Part shown: positions 1 to 9,288 of the stretch, piece by piece
Layout of the letters: each line of letters starts with the position of its first letter
How positions within the stretch are numbered: the stretch's first letter is position 1
IMG/VR virus record: IMGVR_UViG_2778261570_000015
Direction: 5' to 3' (one strand)
Length of the DNA: 9,616 bases
From: a virus
Lineage: Duplodnaviria; Heunggongvirae; Uroviricota; Caudoviricetes
The notes under the pieces: generated by a model
The model's database searches: none
What the model was told of the DNA's origin: nothing
What the model saw: the letters and a program-made list of their open reading frames with translations, nothing else
Translations under genes and position numbers: made by a program

Positions 1-294
<294 letters not shown>

Positions 295-600
295 CCGTCC
301 AGAAGAAGATATTTTCACTGGCTGGTATGTCGCCAAAATCCAGCAATATGACAGCAAAGTCTGGCATTAATACAGCAGATACAAGCAAAGTTTATCATTT
401 TCTGGTGGTAGGAGCGGATGCCTTAACTATGTCAGAAATTACGGTCGATGGTGTTAGCGTTGAGAAGGTCGGCGGCTGCGCCAGAGAATTTCTGGTCGTA
501 GATGGCTTTCTCTGCTCGCGTAGTGACTCCACAAAAACCTTCGTCCACACGCGCGACGTTAACGAAATGAGCGCGATGTATTGTGCATCTGGTGCTTCCA

Positions 601-628
601 ATAGTGAGTTTTCGGAGTCCATAAAAAA
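601..628 (+). repeat. Direct repeat copy 1 (AGTTTT-NN-GAGTCCATAAAAAA); partner at 6481-6504
   Basis: 14-nt exact match GAGTCCATAAAAAA at 615-628 and 6491-6504, extended to 20/22 identity by AGTTTT at 607-612 and 6483-6488. Confidence 0.6.
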
Positions 629-725
629 GAGCTTGCCGTTATGCGGCAACACGGTTTATGGTTATAAGGCACCTCATAAAACGGGTGCCGGGTTTCGCAG
701 CCCGGAAATGTACGAGGCGACACAT

Positions 726-747
726 GACGCGCCGAGCGTCTTTTTTT
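726..747 (+). terminator. Weak intrinsic terminator candidate (5-bp GC-rich stem, 5-nt loop, T7 tract)
   Basis: GACGC (726-730) pairs with GCGTC (736-740), followed by TTTTTTT (741-747). Short stem, so marginal. Confidence 0.35.
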
Positions 748-754
748 GTGCCGT

Positions 755-800
755 TAGCCAGACTCACACTTTTTTCAGTGATGCGGTTATAATCCGCGTC
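755..800 (+). promoter_or_regulatory. Sigma70-type promoter candidate for the primase operon; -10 TATAAT at 788-793 flanked by a GCGG/CCGC inverted repeat
   Basis: Perfect TATAAT hexamer at 788-793; the -35 region is poor (CACACT-like). GCGG (783-786) and CCGC (794-797) embrace the -10, an operator-like arrangement. First SD-bearing start codon downstream is at 950. Confidence 0.35.
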
Positions 801-949
801 GCTTGCAAAATTATGGTGGGCTGGACAGGGCAGCCGAAAGGCTGGCCGGTTTCCTTGTACGCCGGTACTGCGAACTCTGTTCAGTCCACCACCAGCGAGT
901 TTCGCAGCTCCGGTGGTGGGAAGAATTCCCAGTACAAGGAGGCTGCCAC

Positions 950-1144
950 ATGCTGGCTACTACCCCTACCCAAAAACCGCAATTTATCTGGATTATCGCC
1001 GCAGTTCGCCGCGATTGCCCGACAATTACCGCCAAAATTCATCATATTGCTGCCGAGTCTGAACGCGATGCTCGCCGTTCTCTGGTGCGCGATCACATCT
1101 GCTTTTTTGCTGGTCGTATCCGCATGGAGGTGGCACATGATTAA
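950..1144 (+). CDS. Hypothetical small protein, 64 aa (first gene of primase operon)
   Basis: ATG 950 preceded by AAGGAGG (936-942, spacing 7). Codons in this frame are enterobacterial-preferred (CGC/CGT, CTG, ACC, ATC); the alternative long frame here has CTA/TTA/AGG/ATA and about 6% Trp. Stop overlaps the next start. Confidence 0.55.
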   Translation: MLATTPTQKPQFIWIIAAVRRDCPTITAKIHHIAAESERDARRSLVRDHICFFAGRIRMEVAHD

Positions 1145-1355
1145 AACCTACGATGTGCATATGGATCCCCTCGAACGCACAAGCCAGATCATCACACTGA
1201 CAGAAGTGATTAACGACATTCTGGTGAGCAACTCTCCCTCACGAGACGAAAGACTGAAGGCGTTACTCGCGATATTGGATCTCGCCGTTCGTGACGTTCA
1301 TTTCCTGCTGGAAGGTGGACAAATGCCATGCAAAACGGGGGCAACCAATGAATAA
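1137..1355 (+). CDS. Hypothetical small protein, 72 aa
   Basis: ATG 1137 preceded by GGAGG (1126-1130); overlaps the previous stop (ATGATTAA). Same frame as the 288-1355 track ORF, of which it is probably the only real part. Confidence 0.55.
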   Translation: MIKTYDVHMDPLERTSQIITLTEVINDILVSNSPSRDERLKALLAILDLAVRDVHFLLEGGQMPCKTGATNE

Positions 1356-2967: not shown

Positions 2968-3331
2968 AAATGTAGAAATGGCGCTTAGCTCCGCAATCGG
3001 AGAGCAGGTGGCAAAGATTGCTGGTGCTGTGTGGATTCATAACCTTCATTCTACTGGTGAAGAGAAAATGGCAATTCAGACGCCAGAGGGACGCACCATT
3101 ACTACATCTCTGAAGCCGTCAGATGTTTGTGATCTGATTTGCGCATTCATGTACCCAGCAATGAGGACTGTCCACGGCGATAAGTGGAAACTTGCGACAA
3201 CCGCTGAATTTGATATGTGGCTAAACAATGATGGCATGCTGACTGATTACGGAATAACCAAGTGGCAGATGCTAGTTAGCCATATCGCAAACGCTATAGA
3301 CCACGTGGGGTACGGTGATGCGAAACATTGA
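2960..3331 (+). CDS. Hypothetical protein, 123 aa
   Basis: ATG 2960 overlaps the previous stop; GGGAGG upstream. Track ORF. Its 3' end overlaps the primase start by 14 nt. Confidence 0.65.
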   Translation: MRENVEMALSSAIGEQVAKIAGAVWIHNLHSTGEEKMAIQTPEGRTITTSLKPSDVCDLICAFMYPAMRTVHGDKWKLATTAEFDMWLNNDGMLTDYGITKWQMLVSHIANAIDHVGYGDAKH

Positions 3332-6074
3332 TCTTATCCGTCAGGTTATCAGTGCGTCTGAAAACAACTGGCCTCATGTGCTGGGCTGCCTGAACATAAA
3401 TGTCCCTGACTCTCCGCGCCGTCATGCTCCCTGCCCTGCATGTGGGGGCAAAGATCGATTCCGGTTCGATGACAACGGGCGCGGTAGCTTCATCTGTAAT
3501 CAGTGCGGCGCTGGTGATGGGCTGGATTTAATTAAACGCGTAAATAACTGCGACACAACAGAGGCGGCGCTTCTTGCCGCTGATGTTCTGGGTATTGATT
3601 ACCGGACAACGGAAACACCAGAAGCCACCAGCCAGAAACGGGAACAACTGGAAACCGAGCGCCAGCGACGCGAACAGGAGCGCCTGAAAAGGGCAGAGAA
3701 GGACGAACAACAAAGACGGGATACGTTTTCCCGTCAGTTTGATGACATGCGCAGAAAGGCTGTAAACGGCAAATCTGATTATCTGGTTGCGAAAGGGGTA
3801 GGTGATTTTACATTCCCCGTGTTGCCCGATGGATCTCTGTTGCTGGCGCTGGTGGATAAATCCGGCGCAGTAACAGCAGCACAGACTATTACCTCACATG
3901 GTGAAAAAAGACTCCTGACAGGTTCAGCAAAGCGAGGGGCATATCACGCCATAAACGCACCAGAAACAACACAGAGCATCTTAATCGCAGAAGGGCTGGC
4001 AACGGCATTATCTGCCCATTTAATGCGTCCAGAGGCGCTGACAGTGGCGGCGATTGATGCCGGGAACCTGTTATATGTCGCCCAGGTACTGCGGGATAAA
4101 TTTCCTTCAGCACAAATCATCATTGCTGCGGATAACGACCACAGCGAAGGAAGACAAAACACGGGGAGAATAGCAGCAGAAAAAGCAGCTTTATCTGTTT
4201 CTGGATGGGTGGCATTACCCCCGACAGATCACAAAGCAGACTGGAATGATTACCACCAAAAACACGGTATTAAATGCGCCACAGAAGCGTTCAATAAGTC
4301 AATGTACCAACCACAGGGTAATGGCGTGAAACAGGAGCCACAGACCATTGAGGGAAGCGATTTTAAGGTTATGGATACCGATCCACTGAAACCAAGAATA
4401 GAAAGCCGCGAGGATGGTATTTATTGGGTATCTCCGAGAGCTGACAGCCAGAGTGGAGAAATCATCAATAACGAAAGCTGGTTATGTTCTCCGTTAAGCG
4501 TTATCGGTACTGGCAGAGACGATAAAGACCAGTATCTCATTCTTCGCTGGCTGTCGTTTGGTTCTGAAACGCCGACAACCGCTGCCATTCCACTGGCTGA
4601 TATTGGTGAACGTGAAGGATGGCGCACACTTAAAGCTGGTGGGGTAAATGTCACGACCAAAAGCAGCCTCAGAGCAATACTGGCAGACTGGCTACAACGC
4701 AGTGGCTCTCGTGAATTGTGGCGTGTTGCTCATGCCACTGGCTGGCAATGCGGAGCGTACATCATGCCTGATGGGGAAATCATCGGAACACCTGAAAATC
4801 CTGTGCTGTTCAGCGGGAGAAGCTCAGCCGCAGCCGGATATACCGTCTCAGGGAGCGCGAAAAGCTGGCGTGATAACGTGGCGCGTCTGGCCTTTGGTAA
4901 CTATTCAATGATGACCGGGATCGGCGCAGCACTGGCAGCGCCATTGATTGGGCTGGTGGGCGCTGACGGGTTCGGCATTCATTTCTATGAGCAGTCGAGC
5001 GCAGGTAAGACCACCACGGCAAACGTGGCGAGCAGCTTATACGGCAACCCTGATTTACTGCGGCTGACGTGGTACGGAACCGCGCTGGGGCTGGCAAATG
5101 AGGCCGCCGCCCACAATGACGGACTAATGCCGCTTGATGAAGTTGGTCAGGGCGCTGATCCTGTCAGCGTTTCACAGTCTGCCTATGCGTTATTTAACGG
5201 TGTAGGGAAACTGCAAGGCGCTAAAGATGGTGGAAACCGGGATCTAAAACGCTGGCGTACAGTGGCAATCAGCACCGGAGAAATGGATTTAGAAACATTT
5301 ATCGCTACTTCCGGGCGAAAAACCAAAGCCGGGCAACTGGTGCGACTGCTGAATATTCCGTTGAGTAAAGCAGTACGCTTTCACGATTACCAGAACGGAA
5401 AACAGCACGCAGACGCACTGAAAGACGCTTACCAGCATCACCACGGCGCGTCCGGGCGTGAGTGGATTAAATGGCTGGCAGACCACCAGCAACAGGCTAT
5501 TAAAACCGTTCGTGACTGCGAAAGCAGATGGAGAAGCCTGATCCCATCCGATTATGGTGAGCAGGTTCACCGTGTAGCCGCGCGATTTGCCATTCTGGAG
5601 GCCGCATTGTTGTTAGGCGAGGTTGTAACAGGCTGGGATGCTCAGACATGCCGTGATGCGATACAGCACAGCTATAACGCATGGTTGCGCGAGTTCGGCA
5701 CAGGTAACAAAGAGCATCAGCAGATTATTGAACAAACGGAGGCATTTCTTAATGCCTATGGGCTTAGCCGTTTTGCACCATTTCCATACAGCCCGGCAGA
5801 TTTGCCCATCAAAGATTTAGCCGGATACCGTCAGCGTGGAGAACATGACGAAAGCCCAATGATTTTCTACACATTCCCGGCCACATTTGAAAAGGAGATC
5901 GCATGTGGTTTCAACGCAAAACAGTTTGCTGAAGTGTTGAAAAAAGCCGGGATGCTAACCCCACCAAACAGCGGTCGTGGATACCAAAGAAAATCACCAC
6001 GTATTCAGGGACGACAAATAAACGTTTATGTACTCAATTACCAGCCAGGAGATTATAACTCATCTGAAGAATGA
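3318..6074 (+). CDS. DNA primase-helicase (replication initiator), about 918 aa: N-terminal zinc ribbon, TOPRIM primase core, P-loop NTPase domain (phage P4 alpha-like / DUF927-like architecture)
   Basis: Zinc ribbon CPACGGKDRFRFDD...CNQCG (about 3420-3524). TOPRIM signatures IAEG and AADNDHSEGR (about 3972-4244). Walker A-like SSAGKTT and Walker B-like LMPLDEVGQ (about 4980-5150). Start ATG 3318 (GGGG at 3307-3310); the track's GTG 3315 is too close to the SD. Confidence 0.9.
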   Translation: MRNIDLIRQVISASENNWPHVLGCLNINVPDSPRRHAPCPACGGKDRFRFDDNGRGSFICNQCGAGDGLDLIKRVNNCDTTEAALLAADVLGIDYRTTETPEATSQKREQLETERQRREQERLKRAEKDEQQRRDTFSRQFDDMRRKAVNGKSDYLVAKGVGDFTFPVLPDGSLLLALVDKSGAVTAAQTITSHGEKRLLTGSAKRGAYHAINAPETTQSILIAEGLATALSAHLMRPEALTVAAIDAGNLLYVAQVLRDKFPSAQIIIAADNDHSEGRQNTGRIAAEKAALSVSGWVALPPTDHKADWNDYHQKHGIKCATEAFNKSMYQPQGNGVKQEPQTIEGSDFKVMDTDPLKPRIESREDGIYWVSPRADSQSGEIINNESWLCSPLSVIGTGRDDKDQYLILRWLSFGSETPTTAAIPLADIGEREGWRTLKAGGVNVTTKSSLRAILADWLQRSGSRELWRVAHATGWQCGAYIMPDGEIIGTPENPVLFSGRSSAAAGYTVSGSAKSWRDNVARLAFGNYSMMTGIGAALAAPLIGLVGADGFGIHFYEQSSAGKTTTANVASSLYGNPDLLRLTWYGTALGLANEAAAHNDGLMPLDEVGQGADPVSVSQSAYALFNGVGKLQGAKDGGNRDLKRWRTVAISTGEMDLETFIATSGRKTKAGQLVRLLNIPLSKAVRFHDYQNGKQHADALKDAYQHHHGASGREWIKWLADHQQQAIKTVRDCESRWRSLIPSDYGEQVHRVAARFAILEAALLLGEVVTGWDAQTCRDAIQHSYNAWLREFGTGNKEHQQIIEQTEAFLNAYGLSRFAPFPYSPADLPIKDLAGYRQRGEHDESPMIFYTFPATFEKEIACGFNAKQFAEVLKKAGMLTPPNSGRGYQRKSPRIQGRQINVYVLNYQPGDYNSSEE

Positions 6075-6097: not shown

Positions 6098-6126
6098 GTG
6101 TTGGTTCAGTTGGTTCAGTTGGTTCA
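6098..6126 (+). repeat. Three tandem direct iterons GTTGGTTCA (first copy extended to GTGTTGGTTCA)
   Basis: Copies at 6098-6108, 6109-6117 and 6118-6126, read directly from the sequence. Confidence 0.7.
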
Positions 6127-6168
6127 ATTTGTAAAGAGTATTGTTTTATAAGGATTTTATTCTTTTTA

Positions 6169-6212
6169 TTGAACCAACACTGAACCAACAACACGGTATT
6201 TTGAACCAACAC
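6169..6212 (+). repeat. Three inverted-orientation iterons TGAACCAAC(AC), reverse complement of the upstream iterons
   Basis: Copies at 6169-6180, 6180-6191 and 6201-6212; centre spacing about 11 and 20-21 bp, roughly one and two helical turns. Confidence 0.7.
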
Positions 6213-6260: not shown

Positions 6261-6281
6261 TTTTACGAGACTTTCGTAAAA
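6261..6281 (+). promoter_or_regulatory. Palindromic operator-like site O1: TTTTACGA-N5-TCGTAAAA (core TACGA-N5-TCGTA)
   Basis: 8-bp perfect inverted arms at 6261-6268 and 6274-6281. Confidence 0.45.
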
Positions 6282-6318
6282 TCCTGTGTACAAGGGCGTG
6301 ACGTTTTTGAAAGTGAGC

Positions 6319-6337
6319 ACTACGAAATTTTCGTAGT
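6319..6337 (+). promoter_or_regulatory. Palindromic operator-like site O2: ACTACGAAA-T-TTTCGTAGT (core TACGA-N5-TCGTA)
   Basis: 9-bp perfect inverted arms at 6319-6327 and 6329-6337; same core and spacing as O1, 57 bp downstream. Confidence 0.45.
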
Positions 6338-6504: not shown

Positions 6505-6530
6505 CCTGTCAAAACCTGACACACAGAACG

Positions 6531-6564
6531 ATGCCACCAGCTACTGAGCGGTGGCATTTTTTTG
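6531..6564 (+). terminator. Rho-independent terminator, + strand
   Basis: ATGCCACC (6531-6538) pairs with GGTGGCAT (6550-6557), 11-nt loop, then TTTTTTT (6558-6564). No T-tract on the opposite strand, so unidirectional. Confidence 0.65.
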
Positions 6565-6584
6565 TGCTATTTGTTTCATATTTT

Positions 6585-6632
6585 GCAATTACGATGATGA
6601 ATATTGCGATTTGTGAAACTATAATAACTGTT
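6585..6632 (+). promoter_or_regulatory. Promoter candidate for the downstream operon; -10 TATAAT at 6620-6625
   Basis: Perfect TATAAT 34 bp upstream of the SD of the 6659 ORF; weak -35 (ATGAAT, 17-bp spacer); AT-rich upstream region. Confidence 0.4.
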
Positions 6633-6658
6633 GTTTTATACAGTTCTAAGGGGGCGTT

Positions 6659-6820
6659 ATGGCTATTTCAGTAAAGCCGGTATTGATAAGTGAGAAGCAA
6701 ATGGAAGCGATAAAGAAAATTCAGGAAGAGCAGCGTAAAAAATCAGGAATTGGAGTAGCGCCAACTCTGCATGAAATTGCACGAGGGTTAATAGATAAGG
6801 CGCTGGCAGGCTGTATGTGA
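6659..6820 (+). CDS. Small 53-aa protein, possible ribbon-helix-helix (CopG/Arc/MetJ-like) DNA-binding regulator; absent from the ORF track
   Basis: ATG 6659 preceded by AAGGGGG (6648-6654); stop TGA 6818-6820. Translation MAISVKPVLISEKQMEAIKKIQEEQRKKSGIGVAPTLHEIARGLIDKALAGCM has a short N-terminal beta-strand-like segment followed by two predicted helices. Next gene starts 16 nt downstream. Confidence 0.5.
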   Translation: MAISVKPVLISEKQMEAIKKIQEEQRKKSGIGVAPTLHEIARGLIDKALAGCM

Positions 6821-6836
6821 AAATGGATGGCATCGC

Positions 6837-7298
6837 ATGGAACTAAAATTTATTGATAACCCTGTGCGATTACAGGCCTTTCTTAACGAGCCAGGCAATA
6901 CCGAAAATATTGTTGAGCCGGGGCACACGTACTACATCAAGCCTGATGCGGTATATCTCGGCATCTACGAAGGATTAGTGCTGGCTGGCGTTCATGAAGT
7001 GCGTAACTTCTGGCATAGCGTTGTTGAATGCCATGCGGTGTACGACCCCGGATTCCGTGGTGAATATGCACTGCAAGGACATCGATTATTCTGCAAATGG
7101 CTTCTCGAAAACTCACCATTCCTTAACAGCATCACTATGGTTCCTGACACCACGAAATACGGACGGGCAATTATCCGTTTGCTTGGCGCTACCCGTGTTG
7201 GTCACCTTGATGATGCTTATATCAGATGTGGTAAACCCGTCGGCGTAACGCTTTATCAGTTAACTCGGCAACAATATAAGGAATTCAGCGAATGTTAA
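6837..7298 (+). CDS. Hypothetical protein, 153 aa
   Basis: Track ORF; ATG 6837 with GGATGG upstream; stop overlaps the next start. No family recognised. Confidence 0.7.
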   Translation: MELKFIDNPVRLQAFLNEPGNTENIVEPGHTYYIKPDAVYLGIYEGLVLAGVHEVRNFWHSVVECHAVYDPGFRGEYALQGHRLFCKWLLENSPFLNSITMVPDTTKYGRAIIRLLGATRVGHLDDAYIRCGKPVGVTLYQLTRQQYKEFSEC

Positions 7299-7969
7299 TT
7301 ACCCATATAGCTCATAAACATCTCAATCGTGCCGTATACGAAAAAGGCGGTGATGGTGGTGCCTCTAAAGCTCAGGCGAAGGCCCAGCAGCAGGCAATTG
7401 ATTTGCAGCGCGAGCAGTGGAATACGGTGATGAATAATCTCAAGCCGTATGCAGAAGTCGGATTGCCTGCTTTACAACAACTACAAGGACTGATGACTCT
7501 GGAAGGGCAGAATAAAGCCGCGAATGATTTCTTTGGTTCTGGTTTATATAAAACACAGGCAGATCAGGCCCGTTATCAGAACCTTGTCTCAGCAGAAGCT
7601 ACCGGGGGGCTTGGCTCAACAGCTACCAGTAACCAGTTATCTTCCATTGCGCCCATGCTTTATAACAATTGGCTTAGTGGGCAAATGCAAAATTATGGAA
7701 ACCTGCTAAATGTCGGGATGAATGCGGCATCAGGGCAGGCAACGGCAGGGCAAAACTACGCCAATAATACCGGACAACTCTTGCAGGGGCTTGGCGCTAT
7801 TCGTGCAGGTCAGGCGCAGCAGCCATCCAGTCTTGCGCGTGGTATTGGTGGGGCAGCATCAGGCGCTTTAGCGGGTGCGCAACTTGGTTCCGTTGTTCCT
7901 GGAATAGGAACTGCGGCCGGCGCTATTGGTGGTGGGCTTATTGGTCTTGTTGGGGGGCTTGGATTCTAA
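7292..7969 (+). CDS. Ala/Gln/Gly-rich protein, 225 aa, with a glycine-zipper hydrophobic C-terminus; putative internal-virion/ejection-type protein
   Basis: Track ORF; start overlaps the previous stop; AAGGAA upstream. Low-complexity AQ-rich N-terminal part; C-terminus GIGTAAGAIGGGLIGLVGGLGF. Composition resembles podovirus internal core proteins; not verified by homology. Confidence 0.65.
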   Translation: MLITHIAHKHLNRAVYEKGGDGGASKAQAKAQQQAIDLQREQWNTVMNNLKPYAEVGLPALQQLQGLMTLEGQNKAANDFFGSGLYKTQADQARYQNLVSAEATGGLGSTATSNQLSSIAPMLYNNWLSGQMQNYGNLLNVGMNAASGQATAGQNYANNTGQLLQGLGAIRAGQAQQPSSLARGIGGAASGALAGAQLGSVVPGIGTAAGAIGGGLIGLVGGLGF

Positions 7970-9288
7970 TGGCGACATGGCAACTTGGCGGGCTGCCTAG
8001 CATGGCACCGCAAAATGATAATGCTCCTCGTTCTTCCGTTCCTCAGCCTGTGCAGTATCAGCAGCAGCCAAACGTAGGTTTAATGGCGCTACAGGGGCTA
8101 AGAGGCGTTGCTGAGATTAATCAGCAGGCGCAAATTTCCCAGCAGCTAAAAGAATATCAGGCACGGTTGGGTAGTGCGGTAGCTAATAATGATCGTGTTG
8201 GCGTGCAGAAGTTAATGGCCCAGTATCCCCAGTTTATGGCTGATTCTCAAAAACAGATGGGATTCATTGATGCTGAGCAAAATCGGCAGACCGCTGACGC
8301 TGCCATGAATCTGCGTCTTGCGTCACAAACTGGAGATCCACTGACCATGCAGAAGGCCATTCAGCAGGCAAATCCAGTATTACAGCGATTTGGTCTTCCT
8401 GCTGAAGAGGTTTATCAGTCTTGGCAGAATGACCCACAGGAATTCAACAGAATCACTGACCTCATCCACCTCCATGCTGATCCAAATAGTTACTTTAGTG
8501 TTCAAGAGAAGCAGCAAGGGCAGAGTATTGCACAGCAGAACGCAGATACATCTGCATATAATGCTCAGGTTAATGCGGAGCAGGGTAATCGGCGGCTCGA
8601 TATGGAGCAGTTCAAAGTCCTATCCGATAACCAACTACGCACGAGAGAAATGGTTCTGAAAGCACGACTTGGACGTGCTCAAAATGACATCGAGAGAGAC
8701 AAGCTCAATGCTGAACTGAGCAAGGTACAGCAGGCGAAAGTGGAGAAGATGAACGATAAAATTAATACTGTTGCAGGTAATATCGACTCCTTGAACTCTG
8801 CGCTTGAAGTGGGTCATGAACTGGCGGGAATTGTAGGGAAACATCCTTCGGCCGTTACCCGTTCGCAGAACTATAACCCCCTGACGCTGGGGTTTGGATT
8901 CCTCCCTGATGTAGCAGAAGACACACGAAGCCTACGCGCCAAAGCTGATGAATACAACCTAAAGGTTATTCTGCCTAGCCTAAAAGGTACTTTTGGCTCT
9001 AACCCAACCGAAGGGGAAAGGGCTGCCCTTATGCAATCTCAAAATGGCATTAAGTCAGCAACCAGCAATGAGGCATTTTTGCGAGAGTTGAATAAAGCGC
9101 AGGACGTAATTATTCGAATGCAGAAACGACAGATTGCCGGGCTCGGTATTCCTGTAACCAAATCTAAGGACGAAGAAACTGATACCAAAATGCTGTTGCA
9201 GGATCCTTCACTGGTTAAGGATTATGTGACCGCACATGGCTATCTGCCGGAAAGTTACTATCAGGCAAAACTTAAGGGATGGCAATGA
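7969..9288 (+). CDS. Gln/Ala-rich protein, 439 aa; putative internal-virion/ejection-type protein
   Basis: Track ORF; TAATG overlap with the previous gene and TGA overlap with the next. Q/A-rich, coiled-coil-like composition. Confidence 0.7.
   Translation: MATWQLGGLPSMAPQNDNAPRSSVPQPVQYQQQPNVGLMALQGLRGVAEINQQAQISQQLKEYQARLGSAVANNDRVGVQKLMAQYPQFMADSQKQMGFIDAEQNRQTADAAMNLRLASQTGDPLTMQKAIQQANPVLQRFGLPAEEVYQSWQNDPQEFNRITDLIHLHADPNSYFSVQEKQQGQSIAQQNADTSAYNAQVNAEQGNRRLDMEQFKVLSDNQLRTREMVLKARLGRAQNDIERDKLNAELSKVQQAKVEKMNDKINTVAGNIDSLNSALEVGHELAGIVGKHPSAVTRSQNYNPLTLGFGFLPDVAEDTRSLRAKADEYNLKVILPSLKGTFGSNPTEGERAALMQSQNGIKSATSNEAFLRELNKAQDVIIRMQKRQIAGLGIPVTKSKDEETDTKMLLQDPSLVKDYVTAHGYLPESYYQAKLKGWQ

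Follow-up and report, generated by a model that had tools for sequence, protein, structure and literature searches.

What does a 53-codon open reading frame (ORF) do at the head of a satellite operon for DNA-delivery proteins? The question is raised by a stretch of 9,616 nucleotides (hereafter the window; IMG/VR virus record IMGVR_UViG_2778261570_000015), which matches an integrative element of ~19 kb in Escherichia coli chromosomes at 100% identity. In order, the element comprises genes for an integrase, an AlpA-type HTH protein, and an antirepressor, an 'ash' region, and several small ORFs; these are followed by a TOPRIM/DUF927 primase-helicase gene (3315..6074), the iteron origin, the 53-aa ORF, and homologs of P22 gp14, gp7, gp20, and gp16. 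The combination of an integrase, an AlpA-type HTH protein, and a primase-helicase with an iteron origin but no capsid or lysis genes, present in two loci, is that of a PICI of the EcCIMP1 type. EcCIMP1 is a PICI of E. coli MP1 with the P22-like phage Kapi1 as its helper (PMC11773190); mobilisation by a helper has been demonstrated for EcCIMP1 itself only (PMC11773190). The published description of EcCIMP1 (PMC11773190) mentions neither the 53-aa ORF nor RHH, an operator, or LexA, and the text of the MP1 RNA-seq paper (PMC12922286) names no EcCIMP1 genes. The features discussed below are collected in Table 1.

Table 1. Features around the 53-aa ORF in the window, and the cargo encoded behind the equivalent gene in related loci
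Feature	Coordinates	Strand	Basis or remark
Terminator-like hairpin, GCCACC...GGTGGC then T7	6522..6566	+	inverted repeat and T-run
Distal 17-bp operator module (candidate), GTTTCATATTTTGCAAT	6573..6589	.	ATTKCA / TGMAAT half-sites, 5-bp spacer, centred at about -51; PWM 21.1 bits
Weak -35-like hexamer, ATGAAT (3/6)	6597..6602	+	17 bp upstream of the -10 hexamer
Proximal 17-bp operator module (candidate), ATTGCGATTTGTGAAAC	6603..6619	.	inverted copy of the distal module; PWM 21.7 bits
-10 hexamer, TATAAT	6620..6625	+	position kept in 11 aligned loci (TATAAT/TAAAAT/TATACT)
LexA box-like palindrome, AACTGTTGTTTTATACAGTT (CTGT-N8-ACAG)	6626..6645	.	covers the expected transcription start, directly 3' of the -10 hexamer
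Shine-Dalgarno sequence, AAGGGGG	6648-6654	+	4 nt before the ATG of the 53-aa ORF
Gene of the 53-aa protein with predicted RHH fold (WP_001018524.1)	6659..6820	+	ORF call, homologs, predicted fold, selection; ATG start; protein MAISVKPVLISEKQMEAIKKIQEEQRKKSGIGVAPTLHEIARGLIDKALAGCM
First cargo gene, DUF2824 / P22 gp14 homolog (153 aa)	6837..7298	+	GNAT fold
P22 gp7-like ejection protein gene (cargo)	7292..7969	+	
P22 gp20-like ejection protein gene (cargo)	7969..9288	+	gp16-like gene beyond the window
Cargo in Citrobacter			gp14/7/20/16 homologs
Cargo in Serratia			gp20-like and gp16/SLT proteins only
Cargo in the second E. coli allele			gp20-like and gp16-like proteins, without DUF2824 or gp7
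Cargo in Leclercia			T7-type internal virion protein and 888-aa SLT protein
Cargo in Klebsiella			SLT protein and 568-aa protein
Cargo in Cedecea			SLT 'lytic tail protein'
Cargo in Pantoea and Lonsdalea			tape measure proteins
Cargo in K. michiganensis			baseplate-hub-like protein, then TerS

There is ample evidence that the 53-aa ORF is a genuine gene under purifying selection. Its ATG is the first start codon past an in-frame stop (6647-6649), and its stop codon (TGA, 6818-6820) is separated by 16 nt from the start of the 153-aa gene. The position of the ORF, the AAGGGGG Shine-Dalgarno sequence, and the 16-nt gap had all been given correctly in the initial annotation; its description of the ORF as unannotated holds for the list of ORFs it worked from but not for RefSeq, where the product is entered as hypothetical protein WP_001018524.1. 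The spacer between the Shine-Dalgarno sequence and the ATG is short but usable, and both the start codon and a GGAGG/GGGGG sequence at the equivalent place are kept in all loci compared. The gene is conserved in Escherichia, Citrobacter, Serratia, Leclercia, Klebsiella, Raoultella, Cedecea, Pantoea, and Lonsdalea. In the gap-free core of 45 codons, compared among 14 loci from ~10 genera, dN ranges from 0.04 to 0.31, dS is saturated (>0.8 or not computable), and dN/dS, where calculable, lies between 0.01 and 0.19; the substitutions in the protein family are conservative. Shortness, the lack of a family match, and the chance-level frequency of a bare TATAAT would suit a chance ORF or a non-functional remnant. 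The strong purifying selection, the retention of start codon and Shine-Dalgarno sequence, the conservation across genera, and a confidently predicted fold make this reading extremely improbable, and the dN/dS analysis refutes it.

Of the 5426 complete E. coli genomes, 498 (~9%) carry the promoter together with the ORF. A word-indexed search retrieved 41 close clusters of the protein, all enterobacterial, and an HMM compared exhaustively with 1.84 billion representatives yielded only 58 clusters at E <= 1e-3, which indicates that the family is small and an orphan at the sequence level. A tblastn search of 50,697 phage genomes with the protein and two of its distant relatives gave no match.

The predicted structure agrees with the strand-helix-helix pattern that had been proposed from the letters of the sequence. 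The AlphaFold2 monomer (mean pLDDT 84.7; alignment of 16 sequences) has an extended N-terminus (residues 1-11) followed by two helices (residues 12-29 and 37-52), which is the ~45-residue strand-helix-helix topology of the RHH superfamily; DSSP assigns no strand in this monomer. Of the 53 residues, 4-50 make up the RHH core. The best structural matches are to ParD-type PrpA (5.3), the RHH domain of PutA (5.1), and omega (4.9), followed by a CopG-family protein (4.8), NikR (4.8 and 4.7), TTHA0139, and HP0222, and by further RHH proteins lower in the list (SvtR, VapB12, Reg576, and CopA_SO). Among 34 family members, S29, G32, and P35 are conserved in at least 90% and a Thr or Ser at position 36 precedes helix 2, so that the Gly turn between the helices and the Ser/Thr N-cap typical of RHH proteins are retained; an Arg in helix 2 is invariant throughout the family alignment. 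Arc and CopG have a shorter inter-helix loop, and for a ribbon that is to read bases, the hydrophobicity of the strand (VKPVLIS) is unusual.

Searches by sequence, with the single protein and with profiles of 16 and of 34 members, covered Pfam, NCBIfam, PHROGs, and the PDB. Neither the protein nor any of its 34 relatives has a match in Pfam or NCBIfam at E <= 1, PHROGs gave nothing meaningful for the family, and there is no RHH chain among the PDB matches at E <= 10, including those of the 34-member profile. Foldseek found nothing significant in the PDB (E >= 4), and its top non-significant matches are plant TCP domains. The specific kinship with Arc and Mnt that the initial annotation had considered did not hold up, since BLASTP gives no alignment at E <= 100 between the 53-aa protein and either Arc or Mnt of the helper phage Kapi1. 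Judged by its structural model, the 53-aa protein is a new member of the RHH fold class and, at the sequence level, an orphan; as such, it would be expected to dimerise and to bind DNA.

The gene heads a transcription unit of its own, as had been supposed. The terminator-like hairpin and its T-run end the replication operon upstream and insulate the promoter below, and an equivalent structure precedes the operator in the Citrobacter and Leclercia loci; the -10 hexamer and the Shine-Dalgarno sequence are conserved. The TATAAT given in the initial annotation is present, 33 nt from the ATG; as a bare hexamer, it carries no weight, because four copies in the window compare with 3.9 expected by chance. 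A sigma-70 scan called no promoter ahead of the ORF, because the -35-like hexamer matches the consensus at three of six positions only. The call of a promoter is justified by the fixed position of the -10 hexamer in loci of many genera; also the TGAT core of the -35-like hexamer is conserved across genera. Rfam has no match near the ORF.

The promoter is embedded in a block of sequence that is common to at least ten enterobacterial genera. In the window, the block takes the form of a 17-nt inverted repeat (arms at 6573-6589 and 6603-6619), and both arms have a 6-5-6 pseudo-palindromic structure of their own (ATTKCA-N5-TGMAAT). The starts of the arms are 30 bp from each other, which is about three helical turns, and the arms bracket the -35-like hexamer; the proximal arm fills the spacer between -35 and -10 and abuts the latter. 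A protein bound at these candidate sites would block RNA polymerase because they bracket the -35 and touch the -10 hexamer. Over 58 bp anchored on the -10 hexamer, the satellites of E. coli, Serratia, Citrobacter, and Leclercia share 68% identity with those of Klebsiella, Raoultella, and Cedecea, whereas the adjacent 58 bp upstream share 29%; the conserved columns read T..TTTCA.T..TTGCAAT........TGAT.ATT.CA.T...TGAAA.TATAAT.

The motif TTTC[AG]-N4-TTGCAA occurs in 22 of the 24 RHH-carrying loci examined (~0.3 Mb), at most once per locus and always at the promoter of the RHH gene, and is absent from the helper phage Kapi1. Elsewhere in the window, the operator PWM scores no higher than 10.5 bits (next unrelated site, 7.9), compared with 21.1 and 21.7 bits at the two modules. 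It also recovers the modules in loci held out from its training: in L021, where the RHH gene is the third of its operon, the modules (17.2 and 16.8 bits, 30 bp apart) lie at the operon head, those of L022 score 21.1 and 12.4 bits at the same distance, and a module of L023, likewise not used in training, scores 25.0 bits. In the diverged loci L026 and L027, the best module-like palindrome is found at the head of the transcription unit, and in L032 at -56. By sequence comparison, the promoter/operator block is co-inherited with the 53-aa gene. Judged by eye, the sites of CRP, Cra, and PurR and the TGT-N12-ACA site of P2 Ogr/P4 Delta do not fit.

The initial annotation had pointed to other candidate operators at 6261-6337. 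The 15-bp palindromes in this region (TACGAGACTTTCGTA and TACGAAATTTTCGTA, at 6264-6278 and 6321-6335, 57 bp apart) are of the form TACGA..TCGTA; they occur only in E. coli-type loci and are missing from the other RHH-carrying loci, unlike the conserved module, to which they show no resemblance (low PWM scores), and were rejected as operators of the RHH protein. Just after the primase-helicase gene, three direct iterons (GTTGGTTCA, 9-bp spacing) face three inverted copies (TGAACCAAC) across an AT-rich spacer (6098-6132 and 6168-6212); this array is likely the replication origin. Further upstream, Rfam reports an isrK Hfq-binding RNA (669-746, + strand, 69 bits) and a C4 antisense RNA (809-896, + strand, 81 bits), both above the gathering score, together with a weak c4-a1b1 target. 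Both RNAs lie inside a 355-aa ORF (288..1355) that RefSeq lists as 'ash family protein'; this coding sequence was probably annotated in error across an RNA immunity locus of the P1/P4 type that follows the antirepressor gene.

Between the -10 hexamer and the Shine-Dalgarno sequence lies a second potential control site. The palindrome at 6626-6645 is the sole CTGT-N8-ACAG in the window, a pattern that is matched at least once in 26 of 200 shuffled sequences. With a LexA PWM built from E. coli sites of the literature (which themselves score 13-27 bits, median 21.3), it reaches 21.1 bits, against 8.7 for the next site in the window; judged by this PWM, it has the quality of a consensus box and overlaps the promoter, as is expected of a LexA-controlled promoter. 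A LexA box is found at the same position in Serratia (20.7 bits), Citrobacter (15.7), and Pantoea and Lonsdalea (20.4), and the second E. coli allele keeps it as well. The versions of Klebsiella, Raoultella, and Cedecea lack one base, and that of Leclercia is degenerate, so that the cassettes of these four genera seem to lack a functional box. An RNA hairpin formed by the CTGT/ACAG repeat is unlikely, because the expected transcript starts inside its left arm, near 6632, and the RNA of the expected 5' UTR folds no better than shuffled sequences (z 0.02), which makes a role at the DNA level likelier. The operon promoter of the satellite may be under the control of LexA.

The genes behind this cassette differ strongly among loci (Table 1). 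In the 12 loci compared, the cargo always consists of DNA-delivery proteins, of differing virion types, and the satellites appear to carry a genome-ejection machinery that is matched to their helpers. The second allele in E. coli (L033 4094-7843, from E. coli O112ab:H8) encodes an RHH protein of 57 aa, is 90-95% identical at the DNA level, and is followed directly by the gp20-like and gp16-like genes, with no homolog of gp14 or gp7; its group is the one carried by about half of the 498 genomes. In elements of the Citrobacter type (L011-L014 3822-5741), genes for SSB, a ProQ/FinO-family protein, and a 329-aa protein are placed between the primase gene and the RHH cassette.

The reading that best accounts for this arrangement, and which in our judgement is somewhat likelier to be right than wrong, is that the 53-aa protein is an Arc/CopG-like autorepressor of an SOS-gated operon for satellite ejection proteins, of which it is the first cistron. 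That it could regulate the downstream operon had been suggested from the outset, and this remains the best-supported proposal, drawn from the conservation of the palindromic operator. RHH dimers would bind the ATTKCA half-sites of the two palindromes, each 17-bp site being taken in the manner of Arc by a dimer of dimers, and would thereby occlude RNA polymerase at the weak -35 and the -10 hexamers. In the present window, LexA of the host, bound at 6626-6645, would act as a second lock. DNA damage, which removes LexA and also induces a P22-like helper prophage, would allow the operon to fire, and newly made RHH protein would feed back and cap the expression of the ejection proteins. This model presumes that the palindromes are occupied by the 53-aa protein and not by another factor, and it also presumes the sign of the regulation. 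The missing sequence link to RHH families and solved structures, the insignificant Foldseek matches, the lack of a DSSP strand, and the hydrophobic strand (VKPVLIS) speak against an autorepressor, as do the operator-free distant homologs described below, the loss of the LexA box in four genera, and the negative sigma-70 scan.

Three other readings compete with autorepression. The initial annotation had considered a functional pairing of the 53-aa protein with the 153-aa protein. RHH-GNAT toxin-antitoxin modules place an RHH gene before a GNAT gene, the order found here, and the 153-aa protein has a GNAT fold, which would make the 53-aa protein the RHH antitoxin of a GNAT-fold toxin next to it, as in TacA-TacT and AtaR-AtaT. 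However, the acetyl-CoA loop motif of the 153-aa protein, read from its sequence, is RGEYAL instead of R/Q-x-x-G-x-G/A; the 53-aa protein has no tail after its RHH core that could serve as a toxin-neutralising or toxin-binding C-terminal segment and no match to DUF1778 or another antitoxin family in Pfam; and PADLOC finds nothing among the cargo genes. DUF2824 belongs to the head-morphogenesis family of P22 gp14, which is present in P22-like phages, including the helpers, that lack the RHH gene. Conversely, DUF2824 is absent downstream of the RHH gene in most related loci, namely those of Serratia, Klebsiella, Leclercia, Cedecea, Pantoea, and Lonsdalea and the second allele of E. coli. Because the same gene and promoter front cargo that is swapped between loci, the 53-aa protein is not paired with the 153-aa gene; synteny largely refutes the antitoxin reading, which we consider very improbable, and rules out the tempting call of an RHH-GNAT module.

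A more serious rival comes from distant homologs (45-48% identical, 66-113 aa, some with a 50-aa C-terminal tail), which are located between the genes of internal virion proteins in the structural clusters of BPP-1-like prophages (L028 5001-5201, L029/L030 7001-7342). Other members of these clusters are Bbp19, a GP7-type capsid protein, Bbp16, and tail tubular proteins A and B; no operator module is present near the homologs. A hairpin (CTTTCCTCCTG-N9-CAGGAGGAAAG) just upstream of the homolog contains the Shine-Dalgarno sequence. The placement of the homologs suggests that the satellites captured the 53-aa gene together with ejection genes from BPP-1-like phages, and it makes an accessory of the ejection module the main rival of the autorepressor. 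Such an accessory could, for example, help in assembly, belong to the virion as an internal or ejected component, or bind DNA ends; its partner would be the delivery proteins or the delivered DNA, and its place at the operon head would be incidental. DNA-delivery genes as neighbors in every context found, the operator-free homologs with their Shine-Dalgarno-sequestering hairpin, and the hydrophobic residues of the ribbon all fit such a role. Yet the protein remains 60-87% identical while the cargo switches among unrelated families, which argues against a cargo-specific chaperone; it is the promoter/operator that stays constant with the gene, the predicted fold matches DNA-binding regulators, and the protein is absent from the sequenced phage genomes searched. 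On balance, we regard an accessory role as unlikely. Less probable still is an Arc/Mnt-like repressor that acts on promoters of the helper phage or elsewhere in the satellite and thus mediates interference or superinfection immunity; AlpA, a helper protein, or some other factor would then occupy the palindromes. P22-like helpers do use the RHH repressors Arc and Mnt beside their ejection genes, and 17-bp palindromes with an 11-bp spacing of half-sites are equally typical of HTH dimers, so that a factor other than the 53-aa protein could bind the modules. Against such action in trans stand the dissimilarity to Arc and Mnt of Kapi1, the best score in the Kapi1 genome (13.8 bits, compared with 18-25 for true modules), the lack of an operator-like module elsewhere in the 19-kb element, and the co-inheritance of gene and palindromes across helper types.

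The locus offers a concrete, testable point at which the operon that is least understood in EcCIMP1-type satellites may be controlled: the block at 6573-6645 is predicted to tie the expression of ejection proteins to the SOS response of the host and to a sequence-orphan family of RHH proteins. The exchange of DNA-delivery cargo behind a control cassette that stays constant is more unusual than the regulator itself, which is of an ordinary kind. It is tempting, if still doubtful, to see in the RHH gene, the double 17-bp operator, and, in many cases, the SOS box a portable cassette head that expresses helper-matched delivery proteins, a satellite strategy not previously described. If so, the satellite would supply its own genome-ejection machinery under the control of host LexA and of its own repressor, and the RHH family would have its ultimate origin in ejection modules of podophages like BPP-1. 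Such a strategy could underlie the otherwise unexplained superinfection immunity of EcCIMP1, and the swapping of delivery cargo may explain how these satellites exploit helpers with very different virion types.

The closest known relative of the present element is EcCIMP1, which belongs to the same family, has the same gene order, and encodes an identical 53-aa protein (WP_001018524.1; PMC11773190); the matched copy in strain cq9 differs in that it is integrated between yicC and dinD and not at tRNA-Thr. A few kb from this site, between slmA and pyrE, strain cq9 carries a gene of the reverse transcriptase family (L001 246-1205), possibly a retron, which is unrelated to the 53-aa ORF.

Among small regulators, CopG of pMV158 and Arc of P22 offer the best parallels. 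They share with the 53-aa protein the size (45-53 aa), the strand-helix-helix architecture, the first position in the operon, and a palindromic operator (here a candidate) over their own -35 and -10 hexamers, in which the half-sites are spaced by ~11 bp, as those of Arc are; in addition, the 53-aa protein structurally matches members of the CopG family. By contrast, it has no sequence similarity to either protein, its helix 1 and the G-x-x-P-T loop are longer, its ribbon is hydrophobic, and its candidate operator consists of two 17-bp sites 30 bp apart instead of a single site. A further parallel is the N-terminal RHH domain of TraM from F-like plasmids (pED208; PDB 3omy/3on0; 13% identity, no HMM match); the ORF lacks the C-terminal tetramerisation domain of TraM, and its context is not conjugative. 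The likeness to TacAT, AtaRT, and KacAT is limited to the succession of an RHH gene and a gene for a GNAT-fold protein, as the 53-aa protein lacks the C-terminal domain of the antitoxins, the pairing is not conserved, and the GNAT protein belongs to the gp14 morphogenesis family of phages.

The operon also resembles operon I of SaPIs, the packaging operon of staphylococcal PICIs, which is controlled by LexA (Ubeda 2007, cited in PMC6092414). This satellite operon, too, is located downstream of the replication module, contains genes for the exploitation of the helper, and has an SOS box at its promoter. The host of the present satellite, however, is Gram-negative, and its control by LexA is a prediction, with the box missing in several lineages. 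Moreover, its cargo encodes ejection proteins rather than capsid-size or TerS functions, and the satellite adds an element-encoded RHH protein with a candidate operator of its own.
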